From IMG/VR virus record IMGVR_UViG_3300027779_003464, positions 54,608-118,607 of that record: a DNA stretch of 64,000 nucleotides; one strand, 5' to 3'. The stretch is from a virus. Shown piece after piece: positions 26,201-63,745 of this stretch; position 1 is the stretch's first letter; every line of letters starts with the position of its first letter. Both the position numbers and the translations under genes were made by a program. The notes beneath the pieces were generated by a model. It made no database searches. It had not been told where the DNA came from and saw only the letters and a program-made list of their open reading frames with translations.

Positions 26201-26349
26201 ATACAAGAGGACAACAACTTTACACCAAAGGTTTTATCGGAAATTGGAAAGTAATTGAATTAGATGTGTCAAACTATAAAAAAGGTTATTATCTACTAGA
26301 CGTAGATCACAACCACCGCAAGGGAACATTAAAATTTATAAAAGAATAA
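23248..26349 (+). CDS. large secreted protein with signal peptide, PKD-like and MAM-like domains and a T9SS C-terminal sorting domain
   Basis: Sec signal; DSYGDGWNG; DHYPG..GKYIYTEAS...GDICLDDI (MAM); PLPI.L...YYRL.Q.D.DG; NPNP...KGYYLL...KFIKE (Por secretion tail). Confidence 0.88.
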   Translation: MKKLFTLVLLIQLLLVNNSISQCTHTFTGYDSYGDGWNGASVTVMVNAQPVGMIAMATGAQESLTFQANDGDLIKLDWISGTYDYEISWDCLDGGNNTIAMGVYGTVGVGTGACPAPTPCATLDYVQDFESGTTLLAATTGAGSSVTIDGTSANSSVYGLHMQGNTSSGWGSSYATGLAAFTNSTSHIASVSREICAPLQPTVKMTFNKMQTYTYNVNYSWFRVTVNGTPIPDINGNTYFNGSSNIWESMEYNLSAYTGAAFTLAFETCNKYYTGYTTTGMGGDASYIDDILIAQSSSLSPPTAPGSISGNSYPNSGEVITYSISPIQGADYYTWTTPIGWSITYGQTTTSITVATNNNSGTLSVTATNQAGTSSATTLAVTSAVLVTSYPYETAFENETNDVTTGSATGFTFTENGWRNVSGDDGDWRTDAGGTGSTNSGPGGGASSGVSDHYPGTSSGKYIYTEASTPNYPSKEFHLWSPPFNLTSLTAPTLTFWYSMYSVSGASLALQYSLDNGANWANNIAFMCTTTFPIAVIYQDMGTNWRQGFVDLSALQSNSNIMFRFIVTTGTSWDGDICLDDIKLVDAANTSVDVGENITLGSSAYDGAYGLVLNGTSSQIINPEGYSISNITINNSDGVTVDGSDLKIDGILTLTDGVITTGSNKVITTAAPTGSISGGSATSFINGTLRRYIATSSATYIFPIGNGTGTSNYQRADLINGNLVGISYITASTTDMAGGNMTQLSPGLTQNTSVLAEIFDKSWTLTPNAQPSGGTYGVNLYLNGVGGGTIADDNFTIVKRPTGSTTWNDWDSFESTTTIPVGGDPGRTVAGGYMQKSGFTSFSDFGGGGSGGGPLPIVLISWDAEIVGESTSLTWSVASQVNNDFYSIHRSLDCEHWEEVAKIPGAGNANSLMNYHIFDENPYIGQSYYRLMQTDYDGKTEKFSLLGVFYDKPIILSINPNPVEEVLTLYLSETLKGVTHVTIYNTRGQQLYTKGFIGNWKVIELDVSNYKKGYYLLDVDHNHRKGTLKFIKE

Positions 26350-49657: not shown

Positions 49658-50068
49658 TTATATACTATAGTCAGCTTGTTTTAAAGCAAACTCAATATCA
49701 TCTAAAGCTATAGTTGAAACGGGCTGTCCCTCTGCTATACTAAAATACATAGTATTACCTTTACTGTATATAGAATTAATATAAAAATCTAAATTAGTAA
49801 ACTTATGTTCACTTACAGATATCCCCTGTTTAATTTTAGTATATACTTGAAACATTTCATGAATTGGAATACTTACTCCGTAACTTGTTTCTAAATTGAG
49901 CTTATCTTCAGATAAGCGTGCAGCTCCATCCAATACGAGGCCGCTTATTGGATCAATAGTAGGAGACTCTGCTCTTCTATATTGATAAAAATCTTCGAAC
50001 CCTTTTCTTAATTGGATTTTAGTTTTTCTTATTTCTTCTTTTCTGATGTTAGGAATGTTTCTAGACAT
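49658..50068 (-). CDS. hypothetical protein
   Basis: 136 aa ORF. Confidence 0.55.
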   Translation of the reverse strand: MSRNIPNIRKEEIRKTKIQLRKGFEDFYQYRRAESPTIDPISGLVLDGAARLSEDKLNLETSYGVSIPIHEMFQVYTKIKQGISVSEHKFTNLDFYINSIYSKGNTMYFSIAEGQPVSTIALDDIEFALKQADYSI

Positions 50069-50479: not shown

Positions 50480-51298
50480 TTATTTTAAAGAATCTTCGTC
50501 TTTTATAATAAGTAGATAGGTTAAACATGTGTATAGATCTGCGAACCATACTGGCGCTTCATGTGGATAAAACATTCTCATTGATTGATCCAGCTTCTCC
50601 ATTCTTTTAGTATAGGTTAAACTAGGATTTTGTTTACTTATTGACTCGAATAGTATTAGCATTTTCTTAAGATATGGATATCCCGTCGTAAGTTCTACAT
50701 TAGTTCTACCGGTATGGCAGTCATGTCCATATGGATTAGTAGCCTTATTTACTGATTTTATATTATCTAATCCTTTTTTATAGTAGTCAAATATATTATC
50801 GTAGTCCTCGCTTATTTCAAATATATCTTTTCGTTTATATCCAGTTACTTCATATGCTAGGTTTCTCATTTTCTGTAACCACACTGTATCTAAAGTTGAG
50901 GTCATCCTTAATGTTTCTCCTATTCCATTTAATATTTCTATAGAGTCTATTGTGTTTAATCTGCATTGAGTTATAATAATAGGAAATAAAGTAATGATAC
51001 CTCCATAGTTAAGACGACATCCTGTTCTTCCACGTAAAGAATCCTTTTGAGCTTTATAACATAGATCATAAGTAAGAGGAAGTAATGTAGTTTTAGAATC
51101 CTTGGCTTCATTCAATCGCGTAGCCAGTTCTCTGAACGCTTCCCCTATATTTACTCCACCTATTAGGAAATTCTCTAGCTTTACTTCCTCACACATATCC
51201 TTAGATCTAGTAGTTAGACCTGGTTTTTCTGGTATAGGTTCTAGGATAAATGCCAATTGCGCAGCTCTTGCTACTTCATATGCCTCAATCTTATTCAT
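50480..51298 (-). CDS. CitG/MdcB-like (triphosphoribosyl-dephospho-CoA synthase fold) protein
   Basis: N-term AAQLAFILE...KPGLTTR, LNYG.I.L.P, C-term ADL - pattern of CitG homologues. Confidence 0.55.
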   Translation of the reverse strand: MNKIEAYEVARAAQLAFILEPIPEKPGLTTRSKDMCEEVKLENFLIGGVNIGEAFRELATRLNEAKDSKTTLLPLTYDLCYKAQKDSLRGRTGCRLNYGGIITLFPIIITQCRLNTIDSIEILNGIGETLRMTSTLDTVWLQKMRNLAYEVTGYKRKDIFEISEDYDNIFDYYKKGLDNIKSVNKATNPYGHDCHTGRTNVELTTGYPYLKKMLILFESISKQNPSLTYTKRMEKLDQSMRMFYPHEAPVWFADLYTCLTYLLIIKDEDSLK

Positions 51299-51773
51299 GA
51301 TCTTTATTCAAAAATTTTTTTATGTCACTCCATTCCCACTGTACACCAAACTTCATTTTGGGACCTTTATGATTTTCCCAGAGACTTTTGTGAAAATCTT
51401 TATTGTAGGAAGAAGTTAATATCGCCTGTCTCCATCGTCTGTCATACATATCCCACTGCTTCATGTCTCCTCCGGTTCTTTCAATTTCTCTCTTTAGTCG
51501 GTTGTTGTAGTTTGTTTCAGCATCTAGATCAAGCCATATTAGTATATCAGCATCTTTAGCTATTTCTTTTGCGCCATACTCTTCTCCCCAAGCGCCTTCA
51601 ATTATCCAACTGTCATGTTTAAGATGTTCACGTAAGGAATCAAAGTATTTTCCTTTGTCTTCCCAAGGTTTTAATTTGTCAAGATGCAGAATAGAGATAT
51701 CGTAATCTTTAAGTATTCTATTTGCTAGCTTAGTTTTGCCGTTGCCCTTCTTTCCGAATATGTATATCTTCAT
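51291..51773 (-). CDS. P-loop kinase (adenylate kinase / FlaR-like)
   Basis: KIYIFGKKGNGKTKLA, LHLD, WIIEG, ADILIWLD. Confidence 0.75.
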   Translation of the reverse strand: MKIYIFGKKGNGKTKLANRILKDYDISILHLDKLKPWEDKGKYFDSLREHLKHDSWIIEGAWGEEYGAKEIAKDADILIWLDLDAETNYNNRLKREIERTGGDMKQWDMYDRRWRQAILTSSYNKDFHKSLWENHKGPKMKFGVQWEWSDIKKFLNKDHE

Positions 51774-52407
51774 CTAGTTTATTTATAGTCTATTGTTTAC
51801 TACGGAGTAACTCCTTCTACGGCTATCGGGCAACGTAGTTCCTGGTGCCGCGGCCCTACTTAATAATATTAATAAAAAGAATAACTCTATATAAGATAAA
51901 AGAAATTATATTTAATATCCTATAGACATTACTTAACCTATAGCTATCAAATAAAATAACCTTATCTATATAAACATTATCTTATACCGAGTTACTATTT
52001 TTAGATCTAGGTACAGGAATAAAAAAGGATAAAGGAATAACCCTTATCCTTAAGCTATAGAATAAGCTTTCGCTATAGGCTAAAGAAATCCAAAGCTAAC
52101 CCCAAGTATCCGGCTACCACGACCAGCGAGGTCTCAAGATATACAACAGGGGGACTACGGAGTCCCTGGCCTACGCTTACCCTCACGTTGGCCTCTGGGT
52201 ACTATAAAGGTTTTCTAGTGTTGGGCGTCTTTCCCGAGCCGTCTAGAAAAATATTCGAGCGAGGGAGCCAACATGTGCTCGCCCTACCCGGTGCTCTAGC
52301 TCGCTCATGTCTTGACAAAAGAATACTATCCCCTTAATAAATAATACTATAGATTATCACAGGTGTGACTACGGAGTACCTGGTTAATCTCAAATAAAAC
52401 TTATGAT
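51774..52407. other. 630-bp non-coding, partly GC-rich region with several inverted repeats (origin/terminus or ncRNA candidate)
   Basis: No ORF >=60 aa; stems at 52151-52166, 52211-52250 and 52257-52306; three CTACGGAGT copies. Confidence 0.5.
52021..52050 (-). terminator. intrinsic terminator-like hairpin with no adjacent upstream CDS
   Basis: Minus strand AGGAUAAGGG-UUAUU-CCUUUAUCCU followed by a U tract. Confidence 0.5.
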
Positions 52408-52989
52408 ATGACTAAAAAGGAGGCAATAGAAGTTATAGGATGTTCCTGGAGTACCTTGAGACGCTATGTCGGTAGGGGACTGATAGGAACCACCACTCTA
52501 CAGAATGGCCACAAGAACTATTGGGAAGACGATGTCTATGCCATGGTAGGTAAACGAATACCACAAGAACATTGGATAGCTATATACTGCCGGGTCAATG
52601 GTAAGTCTAAGGAGGCCGATGAAAAACTACTAGAACAGAAGAGAATTATCTATAGCTGGTGCGCTAAGCGAGGTATTACTATAGATAAAGTATACGAGGA
52701 GCGAGGTCCTTCTACGGAGTACTCACCGGAGCGTCGCCCTGTACTACATTCACTTATGCAAGATATATTTAGTAAGAAGGTAGATGCTGTTATAGTAGAG
52801 ACTAAAGATAGAATAGCTAGAGTCGGCTGGGACATGTTCCAAGAGATGTTTAAGTACCACGGCGTAGAGCCAATAGTTATTAATAAGGTAATTGAAGATC
52901 CGTTCTATCAAGCTGAACAGGCGGATGATATAACTAAGATACTAGAACAGGCTAAGATAGACCGCCTAGGAGATATCAAGAAAGATTAA
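52408..52989 (+). CDS. IS607 TnpA-like serine recombinase (MerR-type HTH plus resolvase domain), catalytic Ser replaced by Asn
   Basis: KEAIEVIGCSWSTLRRY...G...Y HTH; IYCRVN (canonical YxRVS); KDRIAR.G; no tnpB nearby. Confidence 0.85.
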   Translation: MTKKEAIEVIGCSWSTLRRYVGRGLIGTTTLQNGHKNYWEDDVYAMVGKRIPQEHWIAIYCRVNGKSKEADEKLLEQKRIIYSWCAKRGITIDKVYEERGPSTEYSPERRPVLHSLMQDIFSKKVDAVIVETKDRIARVGWDMFQEMFKYHGVEPIVINKVIEDPFYQAEQADDITKILEQAKIDRLGDIKKD

Positions 52990-53262
52990 TAGATCACGCC
53001 TAGGACACTCAATCTTCCATCATCAGTATATCTAGTATAGGATATAAAACATCATCGTCTAATAACAATAAATCACTATTTCCCGAATCACCCCGCGGAG
53101 CTAGTACATCTAGGGATCCAAAGTTCTCGGCGGGCACGGGAACCGAGCGAACAGGTATCCCATTGGATTTAAAGTGTCAATTTTTGATACTATACTAGTT
53201 GGCTCGGCCCGAGCGAGAAGTGGAAGTCTACCAGATCGCACTGTTGGCTCCTGGCTTGGAGC

Positions 53263-53290
53263 AAAAAAAAGGCCCAACCGAAGTTAGACC
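53263..53290 (-). terminator. intrinsic terminator
   Basis: GGUCUAAC-UUCG-GUUGGGCC followed by U8. Confidence 0.85.
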
Positions 53291-53316
53291 CTTTTCCCCC
53301 TAAAAATAAACAATTA

Positions 53317-54495
53317 TTATAGACTCGCGTATTGTGCGAATTCTAAATCATATCCTTCAGTAGTACCTTTAGCAAATAATTCTCCTGCTCTGTACTTTAA
53401 TTCGTGTTGATTATCCAATGGAAAACCTGCATTGTTAGAACCTAAGAAGGTCATTGAATTAACTACATCCCAAATGGTCATACCCGTTTTGATGAAAGCT
53501 TTCTGGCGATCAGCGAGTTTTGTAGGATCTTTTCCTTTTCTAGAAATTCTGGCTAAAGTATCTCCGTATGAATGGAAATAGTTTCTAGCTATAGAGTTCT
53601 GATATTGTTTCTTAATTGATGCGTCTCCTTCTTCTAGTTTATTTGTTGATAACCTAAAGGCGTTTTCAATTTCTTGTAGACTGGCTTTTGTTTGAGTAGC
53701 CTTATTGATAGCTGCTTCAAAGCCCGCTGGTTGAAACCCGTTCTTCTTCATTAAGTCTATCTTATTAAGAAATATCCTAACATCTTCTGCTCCGGTTCCT
53801 TGTAATCTAAATTTATCTTCGAATACAATAGCACTATTGTTTCCAATAGCTCCTTCACCTAAACTTACTCTTAATCCATTATCACATATGAGCCTTTGAT
53901 TATAGGACTCTACTATGGTATCTTTATTAGTTTGAATAAGAGAGAAACCAAATTTAAAGAACTCGTCTTTACCAGCTTGAGCAAAGCCAACCTCATCGTT
54001 GTTAAGTAGGTTTATACTTGACGTTCCGTTATATGGATTGTAATCGACAGTTTCAAGAGATAATTTAGGATTATCATTTAATATTCTTTCAGTCACATCA
54101 AAGAGGGTATCGTTAGTAACTCTTTTATATCTATTAGGAGAACAAATATCTACAACCTCTTTAGTCTTAGTGTTTGCAATAAGCATTACATCTTTCGTTC
54201 TCTTAGACGCAGCATAATCTTTTAGACCATTGATAAGTAATGATGCGATCTTATGATCTCCTGATTTAAGCATCTCACGTGTAAGACTTGTGTTTAACTT
54301 AAGCATACTTCCTAATTTATAAAAGAACCTATCAGATACGCTGACCTGTTGGCCACTGACTATTATTCTTTGTTTAATTAGACTATTACTATCTACTGAA
54401 ATAGCACCGATCGGAACTTGTCTGACTGCCTGTTCGGCTTGTCCTATCGTTTCTTTAATTTCTGCGAATTGATTTTCGCTAATTGTTTTTTTCAT
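53317..54495 (-). CDS. DUF932-like phage/plasmid protein
   Basis: RLICDNG motif and T.WD.VN..T C-term resemble the DUF932/DUF945 family. Confidence 0.5.
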   Translation of the reverse strand: MKKTISENQFAEIKETIGQAEQAVRQVPIGAISVDSNSLIKQRIIVSGQQVSVSDRFFYKLGSMLKLNTSLTREMLKSGDHKIASLLINGLKDYAASKRTKDVMLIANTKTKEVVDICSPNRYKRVTNDTLFDVTERILNDNPKLSLETVDYNPYNGTSSINLLNNDEVGFAQAGKDEFFKFGFSLIQTNKDTIVESYNQRLICDNGLRVSLGEGAIGNNSAIVFEDKFRLQGTGAEDVRIFLNKIDLMKKNGFQPAGFEAAINKATQTKASLQEIENAFRLSTNKLEEGDASIKKQYQNSIARNYFHSYGDTLARISRKGKDPTKLADRQKAFIKTGMTIWDVVNSMTFLGSNNAGFPLDNQHELKYRAGELFAKGTTEGYDLEFAQYASL

Positions 54496-54526
54496 TTGTT
54501 TAAATTTAAAGGTTAATTAATTATAC

Positions 54527-55651
54527 TTATATTTTCTTTTTAATTTCATTAGTTATTTCTAATGGGATATCTACGGAGTCATTTTCGTCTAAGTTAATTT
54601 CTGCTCCTCTAATAAATATGTCCTCAAACTTTTTACTTAGGTCTACTTGACGTACCGACTCAGCACTTTCAATCTCTTTAAGTTCGGCTGTCTCTTCAAA
54701 TCTAGTTTCATCGAATACTATTTCGCCATCCTTTAAGTTAAAGTATAATCTTTTACCGATCGCGGATCCTCCTCTTCTATTCTTAGAAAACTCTACATAT
54801 CTTAACCCAGCCTCATCAAATAATATCTCCATCATTGCAGTAGTAGCATGTTTTAGATAGGTCGACCCAACGTACTGTCCTCCTTTAGTCATATGCTGGA
54901 TCGCAAGGATAGCACATCCACTCTTCTCAGCGGAGTCAATCATAACGTTAGTTAACCATGACGTAGCGAAGGTTGTCTTCCAATTATGAACTTCTTTCAA
55001 TTTAACAAGAACATCTTGGTAGGAGTCAAGTAAAATGATATCATAGCCATCAGTAAAAGTTTGCATCAATACCTGATCGAGCTGTCCGGTCTTTACGTAA
55101 TCCATTAGCAGGAGAGTTGGTACGTCAGCAATAGATGGAGTCTTCTTATAATAGAATAAGATATCGTTTCTAGTCATCTCACTAGATATATAAAGTATCT
55201 TAGCGTCTGGGTTTTCTTTCTTAATTGAAGCTAACATATCAAGTAATAAAGTAGATTTACCTACGCCTGATTCTCCAATAACTATATTAACCGTTCCGCC
55301 ATATAGACCTCCACCTTCTTCGTGGTCAGACAATATATTATCAATTGCCTTGCCTGTCTTATGTAAAGAAAAGCTAGGAAATACCATATCTTTAATTGCA
55401 ATAACTTCTGCCTTGATAGGTTTGACTACTACGGAGTCATCCTTAAACGTTTTAGCTATCTCACTGTGGCCCTCTTCTACTATCTTTTTCATAGTACTAT
55501 TAAGACAACCATAGGAAATTTCAGGATGATCTATCTCAAACTTCCTGAAGACGTCAATTACTTTTGCATTGGTAGGTACTTTACCTTCCATTGTAGTGTT
55601 AAACCATTCTCTAACACGTTGTTCTTTTTTTGTTCCTTTCAATTGGATCAT
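54527..55651 (-). CDS. RadA/Sms-like RecA-family ATPase (no Lon domain)
   Basis: GESGVGKSTL, YISSEM, IILLDS.Q, HMTKGG..VGS..LKH, KNRRG (RadA KNRFG). Confidence 0.8.
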   Translation of the reverse strand: MIQLKGTKKEQRVREWFNTTMEGKVPTNAKVIDVFRKFEIDHPEISYGCLNSTMKKIVEEGHSEIAKTFKDDSVVVKPIKAEVIAIKDMVFPSFSLHKTGKAIDNILSDHEEGGGLYGGTVNIVIGESGVGKSTLLLDMLASIKKENPDAKILYISSEMTRNDILFYYKKTPSIADVPTLLLMDYVKTGQLDQVLMQTFTDGYDIILLDSYQDVLVKLKEVHNWKTTFATSWLTNVMIDSAEKSGCAILAIQHMTKGGQYVGSTYLKHATTAMMEILFDEAGLRYVEFSKNRRGGSAIGKRLYFNLKDGEIVFDETRFEETAELKEIESAESVRQVDLSKKFEDIFIRGAEINLDENDSVDIPLEITNEIKKKI

Positions 55652-55719
55652 GTTTATTATTTTTAGGGATTAATAATTAATTGTAAATATAGAAATAATT
55701 TTTGACAAATAAAAATATT

Positions 55720-56175
55720 TTATGAATTATTTTCAGATAATTTTTTAAGAGCTGAGTGTTCCTCATTCGATAAACCTTTTACTCCTACTTCTTTTATTCT
55801 ATCTAATAGATCATCTAAGTACCATACCTTCTTAGCTTCTCCTACTCCATGAAATTCTTCAAATGCTTTCTTCATTTCATTAAATGATATTTTATCAGTG
55901 ATCCTGCCTACACAAAAATCAAACTTGACTGAGCTGTCATATAGTTTAAATATCATATAAGGTAGGATTGAATCAGTCTCTTTCATTAGTATATTAAAGA
56001 CTTCTTCAATTTGTTCTGAGGTGTGATCTGTGTGAATCAGGGATAGTATACCTATAGGTAAAGGCATACCCATTTGCCCATCTAATTTACTATCACATAT
56101 AGCGTGTATTGCGGCTATATCTACTTCTGATGCTTCTTGATCTCCAAATCTAATAATTACATAGGATTCTTTCAT
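55720..56175 (-). CDS. hypothetical protein
   Basis: C-term LDDLLDRI...G...LS.EE...L (DUF6576-like ending). Confidence 0.6.
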   Translation of the reverse strand: MKESYVIIRFGDQEASEVDIAAIHAICDSKLDGQMGMPLPIGILSLIHTDHTSEQIEEVFNILMKETDSILPYMIFKLYDSSVKFDFCVGRITDKISFNEMKKAFEEFHGVGEAKKVWYLDDLLDRIKEVGVKGLSNEEHSALKKLSENNS

Positions 56176-56397
56176 ATTATTTGTTTTTAAGTGTTATTGT
56201 TATATTGTAAATATACTAAAAATGTTGGGAATAAAAAAATTTAGGGGAACTTTTTTTCAACTTTTCTACATCCCATCACGAGCGATTGTAAAGCCTAGAC
56301 ATATTTTTTCCCAGGGTATAAGTTGGCTCTATTCCCGAGCGAGAAAATCCTCGCTGTTAACATCTTTTCACATACTAGTTCGCTCTGGAGTATAGGC

Positions 56398-56425
56398 AAA
56401 AAAAGACCCAGATTTCTCCGGGCCT
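56398..56425 (-). terminator. intrinsic terminator
   Basis: GGCCCGGA-GAAA-UCUGGGUC followed by U7. Confidence 0.85.
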
Positions 56426-56452
56426 AATCAACAGCTATATAGACAGTACGCG

Positions 56453-56797
56453 CTACTGGGGATTTTCTTCTATTCTTTCTTTGTGGTATGTTATCATTCC
56501 TTTCTCTTCTTTTAATTTACCTTCATACCACTCTATACTTTCTCTAATACTTCTACGTTTCTTTCTAGTTTCTCCAGCTGAGGTACCTCTAACCGTATTT
56601 GCAAGAGGTCTAAGCGAACGTAGTTTAGTTTCAATAAACTTTATATTTTCCTTAGATTGTTGTAATAACTCTTCATCAGATATTTCTTCTAACATATGCT
56701 CGGGTAATCTAGTCTTCGGCTTAGCGATAGATTTTACTCTATTGATAGCAAAGGAACCTAGGTCCGCAAATAAAGAGTTTTTTAAAGTGTTTAACAT
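56453..56797 (-). CDS. hypothetical protein (possibly leaderless)
   Basis: ATG only a few nt after the promoter -7 box. Confidence 0.55.
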   Translation of the reverse strand: MLNTLKNSLFADLGSFAINRVKSIAKPKTRLPEHMLEEISDEELLQQSKENIKFIETKLRSLRPLANTVRGTSAGETRKKRRSIRESIEWYEGKLKEEKGMITYHKERIEENPQ

Positions 56798-57036
56798 ATT
56801 GTAAATATAAGAAAAATATTTGACATAAAAAAATATTATGTTACTTTTTTGTTTTTAATTGTTGTCTTATTGTATTACGTTTTGATATAAGTCTAGAGGT
56901 TTCTTCATCATCATTCTTATATCTTTTTAACTTCTTATCAATAAGGTTTAATTCATTTAGTTTGGCTAGCTGTGTTTTGTTGGTACCATTCTTTCTTCTC
57001 GACATTTTTAAAACTGGTTCTAAATTAATATTATGT

Positions 57037-57228
57037 TCACGCTTCCCCGCGAGTATTAACCGCAGACATTACCATTCCAAGTCTAGCTGGTAACACTACT
57101 CCAGAGTTACATGAGTTACAGCATCTACCTCGATTAACAGGTTCTGCATTATTCCCGTGATCCCATATAACTTCTCCTTCTGAATCCTTAATCTTTTCTA
57201 TTTCTTTTTCGCAAATTGAACACTTCAT
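57037..57228 (-). CDS. small Cys-rich Zn-binding phage protein
   Basis: MKCSIC...GNNAEPV..GRCC..CN..V.PAR. Confidence 0.65.
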   Translation of the reverse strand: MKCSICEKEIEKIKDSEGEVIWDHGNNAEPVNRGRCCNSCNSGVVLPARLGMVMSAVNTRGEA

Positions 57229-57229
57229 A

Positions 57230-57424
57230 TTATTGATTTTTTATTAATTGTATCTCGTTGTATATTTGTTGTAATATTTCTAATTTACCTAAAGTAATAT
57301 CTGCATACATAGTCTCTCCTACTTTTGCTACAGTAACTGATTGTCTGTATTCTTCTTCTAATAAGGTTATGTTATCCTCTATTAGTTTTTTAATTTCAGA
57401 TATTTTATCTTTTTCCTTAGACAT
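57230..57424 (-). CDS. hypothetical protein
   Basis: Packed ORF. Confidence 0.5.
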   Translation of the reverse strand: MSKEKDKISEIKKLIEDNITLLEEEYRQSVTVAKVGETMYADITLGKLEILQQIYNEIQLIKNQ

Positions 57425-57427
57425 TGA

Positions 57428-57730
57428 CTACGGAGTAGATATAATTAATGAATCTGTTACGTTGCTTACGTTATTAAAGTTAGGTGTTGTTCTAACTAAA
57501 GCAAGTAACTCTCCATTTTCATTGGTAATAAATGATACTCTTCCATTATTATAAGAAGCCTCCCAGGTACAATCCCAAGGTACTTCGTTATTCGGAGACA
57601 TATCTAATATTTCCTCAGGAACATCGCAGGAATATAAATTATATTCAGTCTGTTCTGTTGTACCTGCGTTTGGTGTTGTGCATGCGGATATTAATAATAT
57701 CCCTAATGCTAAGCTTAATATCTTTTTCAT
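57428..57730 (-). CDS. putative lipoprotein
   Basis: MKKILSLALGILLISAC lipobox; stop codon lies within a CTACGGAGT motif. Confidence 0.65.
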   Translation of the reverse strand: MKKILSLALGILLISACTTPNAGTTEQTEYNLYSCDVPEEILDMSPNNEVPWDCTWEASYNNGRVSFITNENGELLALVRTTPNFNNVSNVTDSLIISTP

Positions 57731-57792
57731 AGTTTGATTTTTAAGGGTTCATATAGTAAATATACTAAAAATTACTGACATAAAAAAATTAT

Positions 57793-58044
57793 TTAGTACT
57801 TTTTTATTTTTGCAATGATAACTTCTTTTTCTCCGGCGCCATCTACTATTGTAACAATATTAGAAATCTTCACTCGTTCAAGGGCCGCCTTATATCCAAG
57901 CCTTGGATTTTTTATCTCTCCGATAGACAGAGCCGCGTTATACGCAGCCTTAAAGCTACTCGCCGCTCCACAGTTTTGCCGGATGGTCTCTCCCAAAGGG
58001 GAGTAGATATCAAGAGAACCTAGTATGAAATACATATCCTTCAC
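57793..58044 (-). CDS. hypothetical protein
   Basis: Coupled ORF (ATGA overlap). Confidence 0.5.
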   Translation of the reverse strand: MKDMYFILGSLDIYSPLGETIRQNCGAASSFKAAYNAALSIGEIKNPRLGYKAALERVKISNIVTIVDGAGEKEVIIAKIKKY

Positions 58045-58316
58045 TCTTGTTTACCTTTTATTTTATCTATAATATTTCTTACTACCGAACAGTTTTCATA
58101 TTCCTCTATTGATACAAAATAATCCATCACCTTAGTAAGAGCCTTAATCTTATCAGCTGACGGTGTAGGATCATCTACCGCATACTCTTTATTATTATTA
58201 ATAGATTCAAATACTAATGAATAAAATCCATGTATATCCTCTTTCTTTAATCGAGCTAATAACTTTAATAGTTTAATATCTGCAGGTAGCAGATGCTTTT
58301 TAAAATCTTCCTTCAT
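58041..58316 (-). CDS. protein with UvrB/UvrC-like C-terminal motif
   Basis: YFVSIEEYENCSVVR. Confidence 0.55.
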   Translation of the reverse strand: MKEDFKKHLLPADIKLLKLLARLKKEDIHGFYSLVFESINNNKEYAVDDPTPSADKIKALTKVMDYFVSIEEYENCSVVRNIIDKIKGKQE

Positions 58317-58761
58317 ATTCTTTTGTTTTACATTTATTTAAATATTCAGATATAATTGATTCATAGTTATCCTTATAGTATTTTTCATCTAAACATTTAT
58401 GATACATTATACTTCTTTCATCACAATGATTTAAATTAAATACATAGTGGCCTAACTCATGGAATAGTATTACCCTTGTTGTATAGGGTCCACTACGGAG
58501 TTCATCTATATTTAACATTATAATACTATTATACTTATCTGAAACTCCAGCGTGACTACTGCTATTACCAATTATAATATTATCTATTCGTTTAAATCCT
58601 GCCATATATTGAATATCATTATCTTCCATCAACCCTTTCCATTCTTCTACGAGTGAGGTTAATTGTGGATCAACGAACGGTTCTTGCTCGAATTTAGCAT
58701 ATTGCTTTGCTAAAAACAAAGTAACTAATACTATAATGAATATGTATTTAATAGATCTCAT
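58300..58761 (-). CDS. secreted/membrane metzincin-like metalloprotease
   Basis: N-term TM helix; FHELGHYVFNLNH...SIM (Met-turn). Confidence 0.75.
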   Translation of the reverse strand: MRSIKYIFIIVLVTLFLAKQYAKFEQEPFVDPQLTSLVEEWKGLMEDNDIQYMAGFKRIDNIIIGNSSSHAGVSDKYNSIIMLNIDELRSGPYTTRVILFHELGHYVFNLNHCDERSIMYHKCLDEKYYKDNYESIISEYLNKCKTKEYEGRF

Positions 58762-58796
58762 GTGTAAATATAATAAATTTTTTTGACATTTAATAA

Positions 58797-59144
58797 TTAA
58801 TTAGACTTTTCTTCTTCAATAGATTTTTGTGCCTGTTTAAATATTAGGTCAGCAGCCTCTTCACCAAACATATCATTAACCATTCCTTCAAGAAAAGTTA
58901 AGCCGTCTTCTACTTTCCTAATATATAGTTTATCTACTTTCTTATCATTTACATTAGTTACTGCTCCTGAAATAATTAGGTCTGCTATATCTTTTATTAC
59001 ATCATAGTATATACTAGTACTGTGGTATAATCCTACTATTTCTGTTGGAGATAAATCCTGTATTTGAGCATCTTGAAAGAAGAAATCCTTTCCGATCTCA
59101 TGGTCATCCTCACCATTAAATATAATTACGCTAGTTGGTCCCAT
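58797..59144 (-). CDS. hypothetical protein
   Basis: 115 aa ORF. Confidence 0.55.
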   Translation of the reverse strand: MGPTSVIIFNGEDDHEIGKDFFFQDAQIQDLSPTEIVGLYHSTSIYYDVIKDIADLIISGAVTNVNDKKVDKLYIRKVEDGLTFLEGMVNDMFGEEAADLIFKQAQKSIEEEKSN

Positions 59145-59145
59145 T

Positions 59146-59880
59146 TTAAATATTGTTAGTTAATTTATAATTATCTTTCAAAGTCTGTCTAGCTTGATTT
59201 AGGATTTGACATACTCTAACTTGAGTTATTCCTACTCTTTCAGCTATTTCGATAGTAGGTACTTCATGTCCAGTTTCTATTCCATAGTATAATCTTATTA
59301 TCGTTTGGTCTCTATCTTTTAAAGTAGATAATAATGAATTAACTTTTTCCCGAAAGAACTCTCGGTTGTGATCACCGTTTACTGATGGCTCTACTTGAGT
59401 AAGATAATCTGCTCTTGTAGTAGTTGATTCACTTGATACGAAATCATCCATTTTTACGGTACTTAGATTATCTACATCTTCTCCATTTTTAATTGAGAGA
59501 TATCTTTGATATTCTTGATTAACAGGTAACCTAACTATTCTACCACATCGGTCAATTAATTCATTCATCATCTTAAGTATTCTGCTACTTGCAAAAGTAG
59601 CTAATCTTACATTCGAGTCTGGATCAAACCTATGAACTGATTCGTATAGTCCAATATTTCCCTGTTGAATAAGATCATCTACATCTATTCCTCTTCCCCT
59701 ATTCTTATTAGCTATAGTTACAACAATCTTTAGATTATGTTGAACCAACTTGTTTAAAGCAGCTTTGCTACCTTTGTGCGCTTTTCGCGCAAGACTTAAT
59801 TCCTCTTTTTTTGTTAGAGGATCTAAATTCTTAATAGATTTAAAGTATCTATCTAAACTTTCTGATTTTTGATAATACAT
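59146..59880 (-). CDS. RNA polymerase sigma-70 family factor (RpoD/SigA-like regions 1.2-4)
   Basis: LTKKEE..LA, LV.HNL..V..IA, DLIQQGNIGL...V.RFDP, RIVRLP, EIAERVGITQVRV.QI. Confidence 0.92.
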   Translation of the reverse strand: MYYQKSESLDRYFKSIKNLDPLTKKEELSLARKAHKGSKAALNKLVQHNLKIVVTIANKNRGRGIDVDDLIQQGNIGLYESVHRFDPDSNVRLATFASSRILKMMNELIDRCGRIVRLPVNQEYQRYLSIKNGEDVDNLSTVKMDDFVSSESTTTRADYLTQVEPSVNGDHNREFFREKVNSLLSTLKDRDQTIIRLYYGIETGHEVPTIEIAERVGITQVRVCQILNQARQTLKDNYKLTNNI

Positions 59881-59925
59881 GTGTTTGTTTTTAATTGTTA
59901 TTATTATGTTCTTTATTATAAATAT

Positions 59926-60087
59926 CTAGCTTTTCGGTAAAAGCCTCTCCATTATTCCATTATAATCTAATTCATACGTTTTATAATGGTGATGCTCTCC
60001 GTATCTAGTTAATTCCTTTTTTAGTTTGTCAATAGCTTTAATTAACTCTGGTCCAAACTTTTTCTTTTCAATTTTTTTAGGGTTCAT
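59926..60087 (-). CDS. 53-aa hypothetical protein
   Basis: Read directly: MNPKKIEKKKFGPELIKAIDKL...; fills the gap between neighbouring genes. Confidence 0.35.
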   Translation of the reverse strand: MNPKKIEKKKFGPELIKAIDKLKKELTRYGEHHHYKTYELDYNGIMERLLPKS

Positions 60088-60117
60088 GCTTTATTATATT
60101 AAATTAATAATTAGTTA

Positions 60118-60321
60118 CTACGGAGTTGATGTGGTATCTGCCTCTTCATTGGCTTCATTCCAACCTTCTACCATATAATCAATAGTTTGCTTAGTTGATT
60201 TAGCGCCTTCCTTAACTATATTATAAGGTTCTCCTTTTTCTTTTGAATCGTAATATCCTCCAATAGCACCTATTAGTATAACCAAGAGAATAATAGAAAT
60301 AATGTCTTTAAGTATTTTCAT
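60118..60321 (-). CDS. small membrane-anchored protein
   Basis: N-term TM helix; stop codon within a CTACGGAGT motif. Confidence 0.55.
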   Translation of the reverse strand: MKILKDIISIILLVILIGAIGGYYDSKEKGEPYNIVKEGAKSTKQTIDYMVEGWNEANEEADTTSTP

Positions 60322-60578
60322 CTTTTATTATTTTTAGATTGACGGTACAAGGTTTCCGCTTTGCCTAAGTTACCGTTTGCCGTAATGATGGCTCCTAATT
60401 CTACAGAAAAATTCTTCTTAAAGAAACTAATTGTTTTAGAATCTGTAGGATGTAGTATATAAGGAATGCATCCATATAACGAGGTTAATCTATCGGATAT
60501 TCCCATTCGTTTAAGCTTTTTGCGTACTCTATCAGTAGCGCCAATTTTAATTAATGTATCTATTTCAGTTGCTTTCAT
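60318..60578 (-). CDS. hypothetical protein
   Basis: Coupled ORF. Confidence 0.5.
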   Translation of the reverse strand: MKATEIDTLIKIGATDRVRKKLKRMGISDRLTSLYGCIPYILHPTDSKTISFFKKNFSVELGAIITANGNLGKAETLYRQSKNNKR

Positions 60579-60769
60579 ATGTTATTAAATTTTTTAGCTT
60601 CGTTAATCAATTCCTTTGCGTTAGATTTAACTAACTTAATATCATACTGAAGCTCGTGAAAATGTGATTTGAAATAATTAACCACATCTCGAATAGTCAT
60701 CTGTCCAGACTCTGCAATACGTTCTCTAATTTGAGATTCCGTAAATTTTACTATCATAATTTCTGCCAT
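60575..60769 (-). CDS. hypothetical protein
   Basis: Start MAEIM downstream of an early promoter. Confidence 0.5.
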   Translation of the reverse strand: MAEIMIVKFTESQIRERIAESGQMTIRDVVNYFKSHFHELQYDIKLVKSNAKELINEAKKFNNI

Positions 60770-60844
60770 GTTAAATTGTTTTAAGTTATTATAGTACAAA
60801 TATAGAAATAATAATTGGGATAAAAAAATCCTGGCGAACTTTTT

Positions 60845-61369
60845 TTAACAAAAGATTACTAATCCTTTATCTGATGCTATCTTCAGCGCGCTCATCCATT
60901 CATTATACTTATCAATATAGTATATAGAATCCTCACTATCATCGCAGTTCTCCTTAACATATTTCTTAAAGATAGTTTTATACTCTTTAAAGTCTCTGTA
61001 TAATTCAGCCGCTACGGAGTAACATATAGTTCCTTCACAATCTGAAAAATCTATTAAAGCTCCAAATGCTTCGCTCCCCCAGTATCTACCTGATGACCAG
61101 AAGTCGTCTGCACTTATACCATGTATTGCTTTACATAATATATCTCTAAATTGATTATATCCACGATAGCTACCTGCTCTAAAACTACCTTCAACGGATT
61201 CTGCAGTAAGATATACTTTTCCCATACCGTTTGTTAGTGGAAAAGAGTGGCATCTTTCCTTAAAATCGTCGCCAACTCCGAACGTAAATTCTTCAAACAG
61301 CTCGCTGCCTAAACCTAATAGTTCGTCCGATGTTTTGACTTTACTTATATACATAATATCTAGTCCCAT
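60845..61369 (-). CDS. conserved hypothetical phage protein
   Basis: MGLDI..., GSY.GYN.FR, LI.FSDCEG.I motifs. Confidence 0.7.
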   Translation of the reverse strand: MGLDIMYISKVKTSDELLGLGSELFEEFTFGVGDDFKERCHSFPLTNGMGKVYLTAESVEGSFRAGSYRGYNQFRDILCKAIHGISADDFWSSGRYWGSEAFGALIDFSDCEGTICYSVAAELYRDFKEYKTIFKKYVKENCDDSEDSIYYIDKYNEWMSALKIASDKGLVIFC

Positions 61370-61620
61370 TATTCTGGAAGGTATATAGGTTCAACGGCAG
61401 ACACAGATCTCCATGAGTTCTTCTTTAAATCGAAGTATGGAACTTGTTTTGAAGATGATTTTCCTGTACCTTTAGGATGGTCATCTAGAGGAACTAACTC
61501 CATGTTAGTGGTCCCCAAGGCAATCCTTAGGTTCCCGTCCTTCTTCCTAAATGCGAATTGAATTGTTCCTTTAGTAAGTCTTTCCCGTAATGCTGAGGGT
61601 GAAATAGGTTCTAATACCAT
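61369..61620 (-). CDS. SH3 beta-barrel (WYL_2/DUF2693-like) protein
   Basis: L..G...F.F.KKDG..R.A.GT ... YFDL.K..WRS. Confidence 0.8.
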   Translation of the reverse strand: MVLEPISPSALRERLTKGTIQFAFRKKDGNLRIALGTTNMELVPLDDHPKGTGKSSSKQVPYFDLKKNSWRSVSAVEPIYLPE

Positions 61621-61842
61621 AATATTTGTTTTTAATTGTTAGTTAATTATTATAGAGTAAATATACTAAAAATTACTGACATAAAAAAATTATTTCACAC
61701 TTTTTTTGAAAATAGTTTCGAGCCAACAAGCAACTCGCATGCCAAATTTGGCACAAGTTAGAGTTCGCTCAGAAGCCGAGCGAACATTACATTATCCGCC
61801 GAGGATTAACCTAAATCCAAGTTCGCCCCAGGAATCGAGCAT

Positions 61843-61867
61843 AAAAAAAGGGAAACCGAAGTTCCCC
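61843..61867 (-). terminator. intrinsic terminator
   Basis: GGGGAAC-UUCG-GUUUCCC followed by U7. Confidence 0.85.
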
Positions 61868-61892
61868 TTTTAAAATTAGACTTAGACTAGAG

Positions 61893-62162
61893 TTACGCCT
61901 TTGGTGTTGTTAAAACGTTTTTCATATTACTAGTTTGAAAATCTTTGATTACTTTAAAGTTTTTCTTTCTGTTACGTGTCGTATTGTACGCGACATTAAG
62001 AATCCTTTCGTTAGTTGATTTTCCTTCAATTACTGACTTAACAGTAGTTGAACTCATTCCAACCTTCTTTGCAATCTTAGACATATCTCCGTGTCTAAGT
62101 CTTGAGTTTACCACAACAAGTTTCTGAACTGGTTGTAATTTGGTGTAAGTTGTTTTTGACAT
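61893..62162 (-). CDS. small basic HTH DNA-binding protein
   Basis: LRHGDMSKIAKKVGMSSTTVKSVIEG; has its own AAACC-N16-TATAA promoter and terminator. Confidence 0.7.
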   Translation of the reverse strand: MSKTTYTKLQPVQKLVVVNSRLRHGDMSKIAKKVGMSSTTVKSVIEGKSTNERILNVAYNTTRNRKKNFKVIKDFQTSNMKNVLTTPKA

Positions 62163-62399
62163 ATATTATAAGTATTTAATTTATATTTTTATACCTTATA
62201 ATTACAAATGGTTTTAGCGAAACAGGCTAAAAACGCATTTATCTAATAAAAATAATGAACCTATTGCTAATACACTTGCTATTAAAATAGATCCAAAGAA
62301 AGATAAGGATATTACAAATACAAAGTTTATACATACTAGAAGTACAAATAGTTTAAATACAATTAATGCTAATTTTTTCATTGTTTAATTTTTAAGTTA

Positions 62400-62588
62400 T
62401 TATTCATTTAATGCTACAAATTCTCTTGCTAATTCTAATAGCGTCTTAGCAGACTCTATTTCAGAGTCGCTGGTATCAGTACAACGCTCTAGTTCATCTA
62501 CCCTTGTGTTTCGAAGGTCTCCACTATTCATGCAATCGCTGAAGTCAGTGGCTGTATTTTCAATTCTACAATAGCTCATATTTCCCAT
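62400..62588 (-). CDS. conserved small phage protein
   Basis: MGNMSYCRIENT..D..DC motif. Confidence 0.65.
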   Translation of the reverse strand: MGNMSYCRIENTATDFSDCMNSGDLRNTRVDELERCTDTSDSEIESAKTLLELAREFVALNE

Positions 62589-62741
62589 GTTGATTTAATT
62601 TAAAGGTTATTAATTAATTATAATACAAATATAGAAATAATATTTGACATAAAAAAACTTTTACGCATTTATTTTATAATAAATTCAGAGCGAACCCGGC
62701 GCGGTAACCGGAAATGCTTGTTGGCTCTAGAAATAAGACAT

Positions 62742-62766
62742 AAAAAAACCCTACAAAAGTAGGGTT
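62742..62766 (-). terminator. intrinsic terminator
   Basis: AACCCUAC-UUUU-GUAGGGUU followed by a U tract. Confidence 0.8.
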
Positions 62767-63067
62767 AAAAAGAAAAGAGAGTCCATCGAACTGAGTACAT
62801 TGTTTTCGTCGGTCTTCCAGTACTGCTTAGTATCAGGACTCTCTAATCTATTTTTATCTTCTATACGTAATTAATAGTTCTTTAGCTACCTGTAGTGTAA
62901 TCTCATTCTCACTATATAGTCTCCATATTAGTCTTGCCATTTTTATTTAATTTTATTTCTTTTTATATTTGTTTTACAAAAGGACCAAACTTTAGGTAAT
63001 TACTCCCAAGTCGGTCCTTTGCACCGTAACCCAAGTGATATCCCATGGTTACAGAGCTCTTAATATC

Positions 63068-63439
63068 TTATTCTAATACATCTAATACTTTTTTTGGTTG
63101 ATATCCTTGGTTACTTTTTACAACCCAGTCTCCATCTTTATTATACAGATATGCGTATTCTTCCCAATCATATGCTTCTTCCCAATAAGTATCCGCATCT
63201 GTATGAACAGTAGGTACTTCTCTTTTTTCTCCTCTTGACTTACCATACTTTTCATAATAAGCTTCATCTACTGTTGACCTACTTCCTTCATTTAAAAATT
63301 CCTCTACTTCATCAGATGAGGTAAATTCTTGATTTAATAAGTCATTACCGACTCCGCTTGGATAACCATCCCAGTGACAGTACACTGATTTTACGGTTCC
63401 ATCGTTTAATTCTACTGCAATTCTTGATCTCGTTGACAT
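63068..63439 (-). CDS. conserved hypothetical phage protein
   Basis: MSTRSRI...SVYCHWDGYP.GVG..L; EEYAYLY...W. Confidence 0.75.
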   Translation of the reverse strand: MSTRSRIAVELNDGTVKSVYCHWDGYPSGVGNDLLNQEFTSSDEVEEFLNEGSRSTVDEAYYEKYGKSRGEKREVPTVHTDADTYWEEAYDWEEYAYLYNKDGDWVVKSNQGYQPKKVLDVLE

Positions 63440-63745
63440 AATTTATTTGTTTTAAAAGGTTATTGTTATTAATTATAATACAAATATAGACAAAATTATT
63501 GGGATAAAAAAACTTTTATTCATTTATTTTCCTCTGTAATTTTAATATAACCATCACCAGAATAACCATATCCTGCCCATTTATTTCTTTGTTCCTCAGT
63601 TAACATTTGTGCCAATGAATCAATATCGTCAATTGACATACTATCTATTTCTTTTGCTGTATACATATTAAATTGTTTTAAGTTATTATAGTACAAATAT
63701 AGAAATAATTCTTGACATAAAAAAATTATTTCACACTTAATTTAA

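Follow-up and report, generated by a model that had tools for sequence, protein, structure and literature searches.

A group of uncultured giant phages carries a transposase-derived putative DNA-binding protein and, around its gene, about 10-19 exact 9-base words that point in the same direction. In the stretch analysed here (the window, 64,000 nucleotides of a 118,607-base virus record), we consider it reasonably likely that the word, CTACGGAGT, is a putative docking box of a serine-less IS607-type TnpA homologue that bridges and folds the early/replication block; it looks like a jumping-gene enzyme has been reused to organise one block of a phage genome. Selection on the word acts at the DNA level, the variant of the word co-varies with the recognition helix of the dead TnpA, and the dead TnpA is always linked to the word. 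The binding, bridging and biological role of the protein are what we infer.

A recount returned the ten co-oriented exact copies of CTACGGAGT listed in an earlier note on this DNA, all on the + strand of the window and none on the - strand, against 0.1 expected. The expectation comes from 100 dinucleotide-preserving shuffles (mean 0.10, largest count 1). The reported absence of copies elsewhere holds for the window and for the entire record, which contains no further copy, and the word read backwards has 0 forward and 0 reverse matches in the same 118,607 bases. Variants with one mismatch do not exceed chance: there are three besides the ten exact copies, against 5.0 total matches expected; the reverse near-copy at 49875 is one of these three. 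Density peaks, again as reported (4 in 0.9 kb), at the recombinase gene and its non-coding stretch, where four copies fall within 0.92 kb at spacings of 355, 214 and 343 bp, with no regular phasing. Counting its flanks, the docking box would measure about 13-15 bp, with K-K-A-CTACGGAGT-M-M as its + strand sequence.

Boxes 1-3 occupy the non-coding focus of the array (51774-52407), in which an A+T-rich block (~51860-52000) lies between G+C-rich segments, a terminator-like hairpin is found on the - strand (52051-52025) and a search for Rfam families gave no match. Box 1 (51800-51808) is intergenic and, read on the - strand, is followed 12 nt later by a TATAAATAA box that precedes the start of gene 51291-51773, and box 2 (52155-52163) is within a G+C-rich non-coding stretch. 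Box 3 (52369-52377) has an operator-like position, ~25 nt past a AATAAATAA box (52336-52344, + strand) and 30 nt ahead of the recombinase ATG, where relatives also have a box, in either orientation. Box 4 (52712-52720) is within the dead-TnpA gene at aa 102 (codons P-S-T-E-Y-S). Two boxes fall in the ATPase gene, box 5 (54571-54579) in its C-terminal tail (aa 358, N-D-S-V) and box 6 (55429-55437) in its variable linker (aa 72, D-D-S-V). Boxes 7 (57428-57436) and 9 (60118-60126) overlap the TAG stops of the - strand genes 57428-57730 and 60118-60321, while box 8 (58493-58501) reads E-L-R-S within gene 58300-58761 (-) and box 10 (61012-61020) reads Y-S-V within gene 60845-61369 (-). The frames assigned previously are correct: D-S-V twice, Y-S-V, E-L-R-S, T-P-stop twice and S-T-E-Y, with three copies intergenic.

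The constraint had been proposed to act on the DNA and not on the protein, with conservation of the word at synonymous positions in related phages as the check; it is conserved there, and even at non-synonymous positions, so this reading survives. The linker box of the ATPase is kept in 8/9 homologues, two of them with the box inverted, and the peptide follows the orientation (x-S-V or T-T-E-S) within an otherwise unalignable linker. The site persists although the peptide changes with word orientation, as a constraint on the DNA would have it. The C-terminal site is occupied in 6/9 ATPase homologues, five reading x-S-V and one (L022), inverted, reading T-T-E-S. Boxes are also 2.5-fold enriched outside coding sequence (26/66 versus 10.4 expected).

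In every related phage contig examined, the word or a one-letter variant (ACTCCCTAG, opposite strand) forms a local array that is almost always co-oriented. Forward:reverse counts are 16:0 in G001, 1:18 in G002, 16:0 in G005 and 9:0 in G006, each within 12-25 kb, and a complete 271-kb genome has the variant word 10:0, all inside 8.2 kb (3% of the genome) with no copy elsewhere. Array extents are thus 8-25 kb in genomes of up to 271 kb, and the word is exact (88 exact versus 19 one-mismatch copies in 296 kb). Boxes are spaced 68 to ~4,400 bp apart in G-type phages; the C-type clade has phased runs of 2-4 boxes at 57-58 bp, with unrelated spacers. About 9 of the 19 boxes in G002 lie at gene ends or just past intrinsic terminators, before the next transcription unit. 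One clade has the words inverted in place with gene order unchanged (G001 16:0, L025 8:1, L026 6:0) and includes members of mixed orientation (L020 4:3, L021 4:1, L022 6:1); 80 bp separate a pair of opposed boxes in L020. Relative to the early genes, orientation is identical in 34/35 ATPase-anchored loci, and absolute polarity could matter after all.

The candidate reader gene (52408-52989, + strand) encodes a 193-aa homologue of IS607-type TnpA, in which a winged helix-turn-helix at the N terminus is combined with a serine-recombinase catalytic domain. It matches Pfam Resolvase (3.8e-11) and a PHROG transposase profile (2.7e-26), reaches 18.5 bits against Pfam MerR_1, under that family's cut-off, and its identity is also backed by a structure model and Foldseek matches. 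Alignment to solved TnpA catalytic domains shows the nucleophile serine replaced (R-V-N). In 21/21 clade members listed this column is N, G, P, K or A, and the active-site residues of the recombinase fold are otherwise conserved. The canonical phage TnpA L011 keeps S at the nucleophile, and its 214-kb record is without any copy of the word. Homologues of the dead TnpA are present in 31/31 ATPase-anchored loci reaching far enough and in 5/5 DUF932-anchored loci. Its conserved neighbours are a DUF932-like gene (53317-54495, - strand; 392 aa; Pfam DUF932 E 0.066; Atlas feature score 0.97 to DUF932 clusters), whose product is 55-67% identical among relatives, and a gene for a RecA/DnaB-type P-loop ATPase (54527-55651, - strand; 374 aa), its core flanked by boxes 5 and 6. 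Mean identity within the dead TnpA is 0.58 in the DNA-binding domain versus 0.50 in the remainder, and that the former is only slightly more conserved counts against the docking reading.

Among proteins with G-type words, residue 15 of the recognition helix is S, N or T in 15/15; among those with C-type words only, it is K in 9/9. This co-variation depends on a single deep split and on L053. The latter, nested in the C-type clade (support 100/100), has R at this residue and carries 7 G-type and 2 C-type words in homologous places; L049, L050 and L070 have both word types and depart from a simple one-residue code. Together with the nucleophile data, the co-variation makes the dead recombinase, the first candidate named in the earlier note, the most likely reader. 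A host machine had been named as well, but the same word is used by phages of 30-47% G+C and its one-letter variant tracks phage lineage, which argues for a phage-encoded reader. The linkage of TnpA to the word is confounded by common descent, since the word was found in no phage lacking the protein, and the boxes could be read by any other protein that these phages conserve. We nevertheless think it quite unlikely that the boxes are read by another protein of the module (DUF932-like, the ATPase N-terminal domain or a small HTH protein) with the dead TnpA a mere neighbour. The array is linked to the genes of the DUF932-like protein and the ATPase as strictly as to the TnpA gene, but the products of those two genes have no recognised sequence-specific DNA-binding domain, and the word change in L053 accompanies a recognition-helix change. 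Binding to 9-bp direct repeats, moreover, is documented for the TnpA family (PMC6188088).

If the dead TnpA docks on the boxes, it would be a domesticated transposase that has kept its winged-helix domain and recombinase fold and lost cutting. Each of its DNA-binding domains would read a single asymmetric box of 9 bp, much as canonical TnpAs of the IS607 family read their 9-bp direct repeats. The boxes are dispersed over the early/replication gene block, with peak density at the proposed reader's own gene. The AATAAATAA box is also found ahead of many structural-type genes in the record, which makes it a candidate element of late or middle promoters, and its place ahead of the TnpA gene suggests that synthesis of the protein probably follows the early phase. 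The protein would then occupy the boxes, one of them between its own promoter box and start codon, which would amount to autoregulation; an own-gene box between a ATAAATAA box and the start codon is found in G000 and in the group of G001, L021, L023, L025 and L026. A two-fold symmetric dimer or oligomer could bridge boxes as TnpA pairs transposon ends. Interwound DNA would bring direct-repeat boxes antiparallel, suiting a symmetric bridge, so that mutual orientation alone would matter. The result may be a folded or insulated early/replication domain, leading to early-gene shut-off and/or replication control. Against docking, the word is an all-or-none 9-mer in which mismatches are not tolerated, stricter than most helix-turn-helix sites.

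Canonical IS607 TnpAs bind 9-bp direct repeats, and IS607 element ends commonly carry short direct repeats of varying spacing, according to PMC6188088, the introduction of which raises the idea of domesticated transposases as DNA-binding or genome-organising factors. The phage protein has the same family and domain order as the TnpAs with subterminal 9-bp direct repeats treated there (IS1535, IS607, ISC1926), and the sites are alike in being short, asymmetric 9-bp binding units, directly repeated at spacings that differ between elements, on which TnpA nucleates and pairs DNA segments (PMC6188088). IS607 boxes, however, are helically phased within ~60 bp of the element end, whereas phage boxes extend over 8-25 kb, inside genes. 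The phage clade has also lost the nucleophile serine throughout, its locus is without tnpB, and its gene sits in a fixed syntenic place of one lineage and is not moving. Domesticated transposases, known mainly from eukaryotes, are similar in the loss of catalysis, retention of sequence-specific DNA binding (putative here) and vertical inheritance. We found no published description of this system in the literature, and no example of a domesticated IS607-type serine transposase in a phage. Plasmid and chromosome organisers of the ParB-parS and KorB-operator type act globally through a small number of exact sites in the neighbourhood of the gene that encodes them. The phage array resembles them in its dozen or so exact sites, some in genes, near the binding protein's gene, and in keeping one site sequence in replicons that differ widely in base composition. 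Their sites are palindromic, non-polar and read by a ParB fold, whereas the phage site is asymmetric, co-oriented and assigned to a transposase derivative; the parS analogy drawn in the earlier note holds only loosely, as regards the few exact sites near the binding protein's gene.

The dense cluster could instead be the phage replication origin, its boxes being iterons for an initiator derived from a transposase and the dispersed copies serving handcuffing or copy control through the same reader. We regard this as unlikely, although direct repeats adjoin the genes of the binding protein and the DnaB/RecA-type ATPase, an A+T-rich block with G+C-rich flanks marks the cluster in G000 and several relatives, and the C-type clade has its phased runs. 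The iterons found at plasmid and phage origins typically have about double the length of the phage word, are tightly phased and stay within the origin. The phage boxes share with them direct repetition by the binding protein's gene, the adjoining A+T-rich block, putative autoregulation and, in C-type relatives, phasing, but they are 9 bp long, mostly unphased and spread over many genes. This spread greatly exceeds any known iteron field, the window spacings are irregular, cumulative GC skew has no turning point at the array in the complete 271-kb genome, and no initiator-type domain is present. It is very unlikely that the boxes serve for strand-specific nicking or processing, with co-orientation avoiding double-strand breaks. 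The virion DNA of some phages does bear nicks on one strand only, and an exact, asymmetric, one-stranded word whose mutual and not absolute orientation is kept would fit, as would the conserved active-site residues; yet a nuclease was not identified, the freely varying nucleophile position is contrary to retained chemistry, and L020 has its opposed boxes.

It is in our view highly improbable that the boxes are integron-like crossover sites, at which early-gene cassettes would be exchanged or excised, or that they act as upstream activators of middle promoters. Many lie at gene ends or past terminators, as in G002, and the early region is gene-variable among relatives, but the recombinase is without its nucleophile and synteny blocks shared by relatives run through the boxes instead of stopping at them. 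Flank covariation is absent, hence there is no folded attC-like site. As activators, the boxes have no fixed-distance partner element within 60 nt except the neighbouring box of the 57-bp runs (293 non-redundant boxes), and the inverted boxes of one clade would fire antisense. The earlier note had suggested a polar signal like Chi or KOPS, or a cue for genome entry or packaging; to this, with a host machine or the terminase as reader, we assign almost no probability. Chi and KOPS words are likewise strand-polar 8-9-mers written through coding sequence, and contigs G000, G005 and G006 end in or just past the array with the 3' end of the word toward the contig end. Assembly, however, is expected to leave contig ends in hypervariable early regions. 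Chi and KOPS words occur genome-wide, are recognised by host motors and change strand according to replication or end geometry, whereas the phage word is local, is used over the G+C range given above, has lineage-specific variants, shows no orientation switch at the dense cluster near 52 kb, where a flip had been suggested as a check, and is inverted in one clade with gene order conserved. Chi/KOPS-like, packaging, RNA, hairpin and promoter readings were not supported. Within the array lies a gene for a phage sigma-70-family factor (59146-59880, - strand), which is conserved in L033 and L036.

The window contains ten copies of the exact 9-mer CTACGGAGT, between 51800 and 61020 and all on the + strand, against a chance expectation of 0.10 copies in dinucleotide-preserving shuffles. 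One-mismatch forms are not enriched in the window, with three beyond the exact ten and 5.0 matches expected in all. The earlier note had reported the ten + strand copies and their reading frames; its coordinates proved exact and its frames correct, and the both-strand count that it proposed returned ten copies in the whole 118.6-kb record, whose last 64 kb form the window, with no further copy outside the window on either strand. Of these boxes, three fall between genes and one within the region's sole + strand gene; the other six lie in - strand genes, where they cover all three frames and in two of the six cases provide a TAG stop. Four same-direction copies fall inside 0.92 kb around the recombinase gene (52408-52989, +), and the largest non-coding stretch, which lies upstream of this gene and is G+C-rich with an A+T-rich block, carries boxes 1-3. 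Assembled contigs of four low-depth runs, which hold few variants overall, have zero variants within the boxes. Three independent assemblies, of the record studied here (G000) and the virus records G005 and G006, break off within the array or shortly past it, with 22 nt to 3 kb left after the last box, which might mark a true genome end or an assembly failure in a hypervariable region.

Relatives were reached in three ways, by recombinase homologues and by using either the DUF932-like gene (53317-54495, -) or the RecA/DnaB-type ATPase gene (54527-55651, -) as an anchor; a related-locus search with single proteins returned no locus. Through recombinase homologues we reached contigs from viruses and metagenomes, with 33-47% G+C, and the same exact 9-mer surrounds the gene in every one. 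Recombinase and word were both present in all five contigs anchored on the DUF932-like gene, and all 35 ATPase-anchored viral loci have arrays, made up of ACTCCGTAG (the window word in reverse complement), of ACTCCCTAG (one letter different) or of both. A homologue of the recombinase, a serine-less IS607-type TnpA referred to here as the dead TnpA, was found in each of the 31 ATPase-anchored loci that reach far enough (30 by tblastn and one more by profile); the remaining four of the 35 stop within ~1.1 kb of the ATPase gene. Forward:reverse word counts are 10:0 for G000, 0:12 for G003, 16:0 for G005 and 9:0 for G006 over the whole records, 16:0 for G001 in an array spanning 25 kb of 127.5 kb, and 1:18 for G002 in an array spanning 25 kb of 80.5 kb. 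The complete 271-kb genome (G007) has the variant word ten times on one strand inside 8.2 kb and zero times elsewhere. The dead-TnpA family occurs once among bacterial genomes, in a metagenome bin, where its contig is 1.6 kb long; the phage collection searched contained no close relative and no cultured member of the clade. The word has zero copies in the record of another phage, L011, which encodes a canonical, serine-bearing TnpA. Across these records the word is a signature of the clade. L011 belongs to a 214-kb A+T-rich phage record (G004), and near its canonical IS607-type TnpA a different 9-mer, TTCCTGATG, has a 12:1 strand bias, part of it falling in a coding stretch of tandem repeats.

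The word is held to exactness in the relatives: 296 kb of related sequence contain 88 exact copies versus 19 for all 27 one-mismatch variants pooled. A consistent flank preference, K-K-A before and M-M after, extends the footprint to ~13-15 bp, and 293 non-redundant boxes hold no information outside positions -2 to +12. Boxes are 2.5-fold commoner outside coding sequence than expected, about half of those in G002 lie directly behind intrinsic terminators, and in-gene boxes sit at tolerant places. The proposal of the earlier note that the constraint is on the DNA and not on the protein is borne out by the ATPase gene, where 8 of 9 homologues have a box in a variable linker and 6 of 9 have one in the C-terminal tail. 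The linker box is thus conserved in related phages, as the note had asked to be checked, and the ATPase box is kept while its peptide changes with orientation, reading x-S-V when the sense strand is ACTCCGTAG and T-T-E-S when the word is reversed. The two ATPase boxes of the window (54571 and 55429) bracket the P-loop core; in seven phages such boxes are always in the same frame, 252-286 codons apart, so that their separation is a whole number of codons, and this fixed frame may be simple inheritance.

Several kinds of site were considered and rejected. A palindromic site is contradicted by the two symmetric versions of the word, which stand at background (5 and 4 copies versus 92 asymmetric). 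Boxes 1-3 of the window resemble extended hairpins; over 85 distinct boxes, flank pairs are Watson-Crick in 35 versus 34.0 in shuffles, and flanks without covariation imply no hairpin or cruciform. A structured RNA or RNA signal was set aside on the lack of an Rfam family, the lack of covariation and the existence of one clade that reverses the word against the same genes; reversed boxes would yield complementary RNA, which excludes a signal at the transcript level. The window has no Rfam family at gathering threshold (one chance-level match, E 0.87), and no tRNAs were found. Among the 293 boxes there is also no partner element at a fixed distance, the sole recurring hexamers, at 53-60 nt, being the neighbouring box of 57-bp runs. 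This lack of a second element argues against a promoter or activator box, as does the reversal of the boxes relative to the genes in the S-type clade. Taken together, these comparisons point to a constraint on double-stranded DNA.

The early-gene sense strand reads ACTCC(G/C)TAG in 34 of the 35 ATPase-anchored loci. One recombinase clade has the opposite or a mixed orientation, with gene order unchanged and words reversed at the same places (G001 16:0, L025 8:1, L026 6:0, L021 4:1, L022 6:1, L020 4:3), and reversal of the 10-mer requires two substitutions. The most economical rule is one in which boxes have to match each other in orientation, with two stable states and rare transitions via mixed fields. 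A two-fold symmetric dimer with one box per DNA-binding domain would favour direct repeats, and we infer that direct repeats lying antiparallel in interwound DNA would suit such a dimer. The polar signal of Chi or KOPS type that the earlier note had envisaged was not supported: all copies lie within 8-25 kb without a strand switch, and orientation stays the same beyond the dense cluster. GC skew in the complete genome G007 tracks gene strand only and was uninformative on this point. Polarity is the only likeness to Chi and KOPS, and a polar signal read by the host is less likely than the scaffold proposed below.

The 193-aa product of the recombinase gene combines a MerR-like helix-turn-helix at its N terminus with a catalytic domain of resolvase type. 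The Pfam Resolvase match is 3.8e-11, a MerR_1 match over residues 1-44 scores 18.5 bits, below the 21.6-bit cut-off, and the PHROG annotation is 'transposase'. A profile built from the protein and eleven homologues was aligned to solved IS607-type TnpA catalytic domains; it matches 3lhk, 6dgc, 3ilx and 6dgb and places the family R-V-N on the A-R-V-S nucleophile motif. The AlphaFold2 model (mean pLDDT 80.9) has a winged helix followed by a recombinase fold, with residues 3-46 forming helix-helix-hairpin-helix at pLDDT 86-91, and its best Foldseek matches are the same TnpA entries. The catalytic serine of the Y-x-R-V-S motif is replaced in the window protein, which reads R-V-N; in each of the 21 clade members the nucleophile column holds N, G, P, K or A, and the canonical L011 protein has S there. 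Because the clade column is never S, T, C or Y, catalysis has been lost rather than moved, although the protein is conserved and syntenic. The gene occupies the same syntenic place in all relatives and faces a long - strand run of the DUF932-like gene, the ATPase, a sigma-70-family factor (59146-59880, -) and many small genes; no neighbouring gene matched the family of a TnpB partner. In the window, in G001 and in the related loci L021, L023, L025 and L026, a box lies between a ATAAATAA-type box and the recombinase start codon. A G+C-rich element with GGTTGGGCG is conserved ~100-150 nt upstream of this start (window 52200-52300) and at homologous places in the same five relatives, which otherwise align poorly; it has no Rfam match.

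These comparisons show that an exact word forms a selected, local field of co-oriented copies that centres on, and co-evolves with, a catalytically dead transposase. The earlier note had listed the serine-less recombinase among its candidate readers, and we now favour it. The word variant follows its recognition helix. At residue 15 of this presumed helix, S, N or T is found in 15 of 15 proteins with G-type arrays and K in 9 of 9 proteins with purely C-type arrays, G and C denoting one-letter variants of the word. The C-type proteins form one clade (support 100/100). Within it, locus L053 lies on a long branch with R at residue 15, and 7 of its 9 boxes have changed to G-type at places homologous to C-type boxes of its relatives. 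Such co-variation is the pattern that would be expected of a protein and its site; it comes from no more than two or three evolutionary events, and a one-residue code is broken by three lineages that carry both types of word. According to PMC6188088, the N-terminal domain of canonical IS607-family TnpAs binds short, directly repeated motifs, and the TnpA of IS1535 spreads from four 9-bp direct repeats and pairs two DNA ends. On this evidence the dead TnpA is probably the reader of the boxes, and another phage-encoded protein is a less likely one.

The recombinase gene lies behind a ATAAATAA-type box shared with many structural-type genes, suggesting that the protein is made after the early genes, and it probably then acts on the early/replication block. 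On the boxes, the dead TnpA would form a bridging or insulating nucleoprotein scaffold. Bridging is a tentative assignment, held at somewhat less than even confidence, and silencing or insulation of the early domain is possible but rather doubtful. That the boxes serve as origin iterons appears unlikely: the A+T-rich block of the window cluster and a 57-58 bp phasing in C-type relatives speak for it, and the phasing is absent in the window. In those relatives, C-type boxes upstream of the recombinase gene form runs of exact 57-58 bp period (L056 13799-13978, L053 5475-5597, L049 15247-15830, L064 13920-13986, L070 10578-10643) with unrelated spacers, so the spacing itself seems constrained.

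Cassette crossover sites of the integron-like attC type are less likely than a scaffold, because flank pairing is at shuffle level (35 of 85 versus 34.0), synteny blocks of the pairs L025/G001 and L022/L020 continue through the boxes, and the recombinase has no nucleophile; nicking sites are likewise less likely. In a more speculative version of the scaffold, which we consider somewhat improbable, the transposase without chemistry would act as a sequence-guided zip, its symmetric oligomers synapsing co-oriented boxes and turning a giant phage's 10-25 kb early/replication domain into an interwound filament that serves as a chromatin-like on/off switch or a replication licence. The boxes' orientation relative to one another would serve as its grammar, with the field flipped by majority rule and re-coded by one letter and one recognition-helix residue. 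In a bolder form still, a partner enzyme recruited by the scaffold would process the DNA at the boxes strand-specifically.

The dead TnpA shares with IS607-family TnpAs a C-terminal serine-recombinase domain and an N-terminal MerR-like winged helix, in inverted domain order, and short directly repeated motifs near the gene, the putative sites here being likened by layout and not by motif letters. Without nucleophile, tnpB and mobility, the phage system does not qualify as an IS607 insertion sequence, but it may work like the end-binding mode of IS607 TnpA. Organisers of the ParB/KorB type are alike in layout and differ in fold and site symmetry. Our search for a printed account of the words, or of serine-less or domesticated serine recombinases in phages, returned only primers and unrelated work. 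If correct, the proposed system would be a clear example of transposase domestication in a prokaryotic virus, in which an IS607-type serine transposase became a site-specific DNA-binding factor and its word colonised a whole gene block. It would also provide a natural protein-DNA code of one helix residue versus one word base, with a natural reversion, and a rule that textbook systems explain poorly, in which sites agree with each other and not with genes. The array is a marker for a widespread clade of uncultured phages from marine and lake waters and bears on the separation of early from late genome domains in giant phages, and short, exact, orthogonal pairs of word and reader are possible tools.

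Other elements of the record were noted. An A+T-rich, promoter-like repeat of ~53 nt has ten intergenic copies in the - strand small-gene region (55683-63745); these are probably early promoters of the small genes, of a kind that we take to resemble the Bacteroidota promoter type. Contigs assembled from public runs join across some of them (e.g. 56800 to 62937), which may reflect recombination between repeats or an assembly artefact. At a distance of 15-35 nt ahead of their start codons, many structural-type genes and the dead-TnpA gene have the box (A/G/T)ATAAATAA, in many cases with an A-run behind it (e.g. 5795, 8022, 18728, 19776, 27486(-), 30277(-), 50454(-), 51787(-) and 52336); this box is a candidate promoter element of late or middle type. 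At the thresholds applied, neither Pfam nor PHROG matched the two genes at 50480-51773. At its C-terminal end, a 1038-aa open frame carries a type IX secretion sorting domain (PF18962, 43.9 bits; window 26119-26340, record 80726-80947), which fits a Bacteroidota host. Finally, a second motif family (GAGCCAAC / GAGCGAG-type) follows intrinsic terminators at 53243-53285, 61821-61863 and 62712-62748 and is among the most enriched 9-mers in the related loci L020, L022 and L026.
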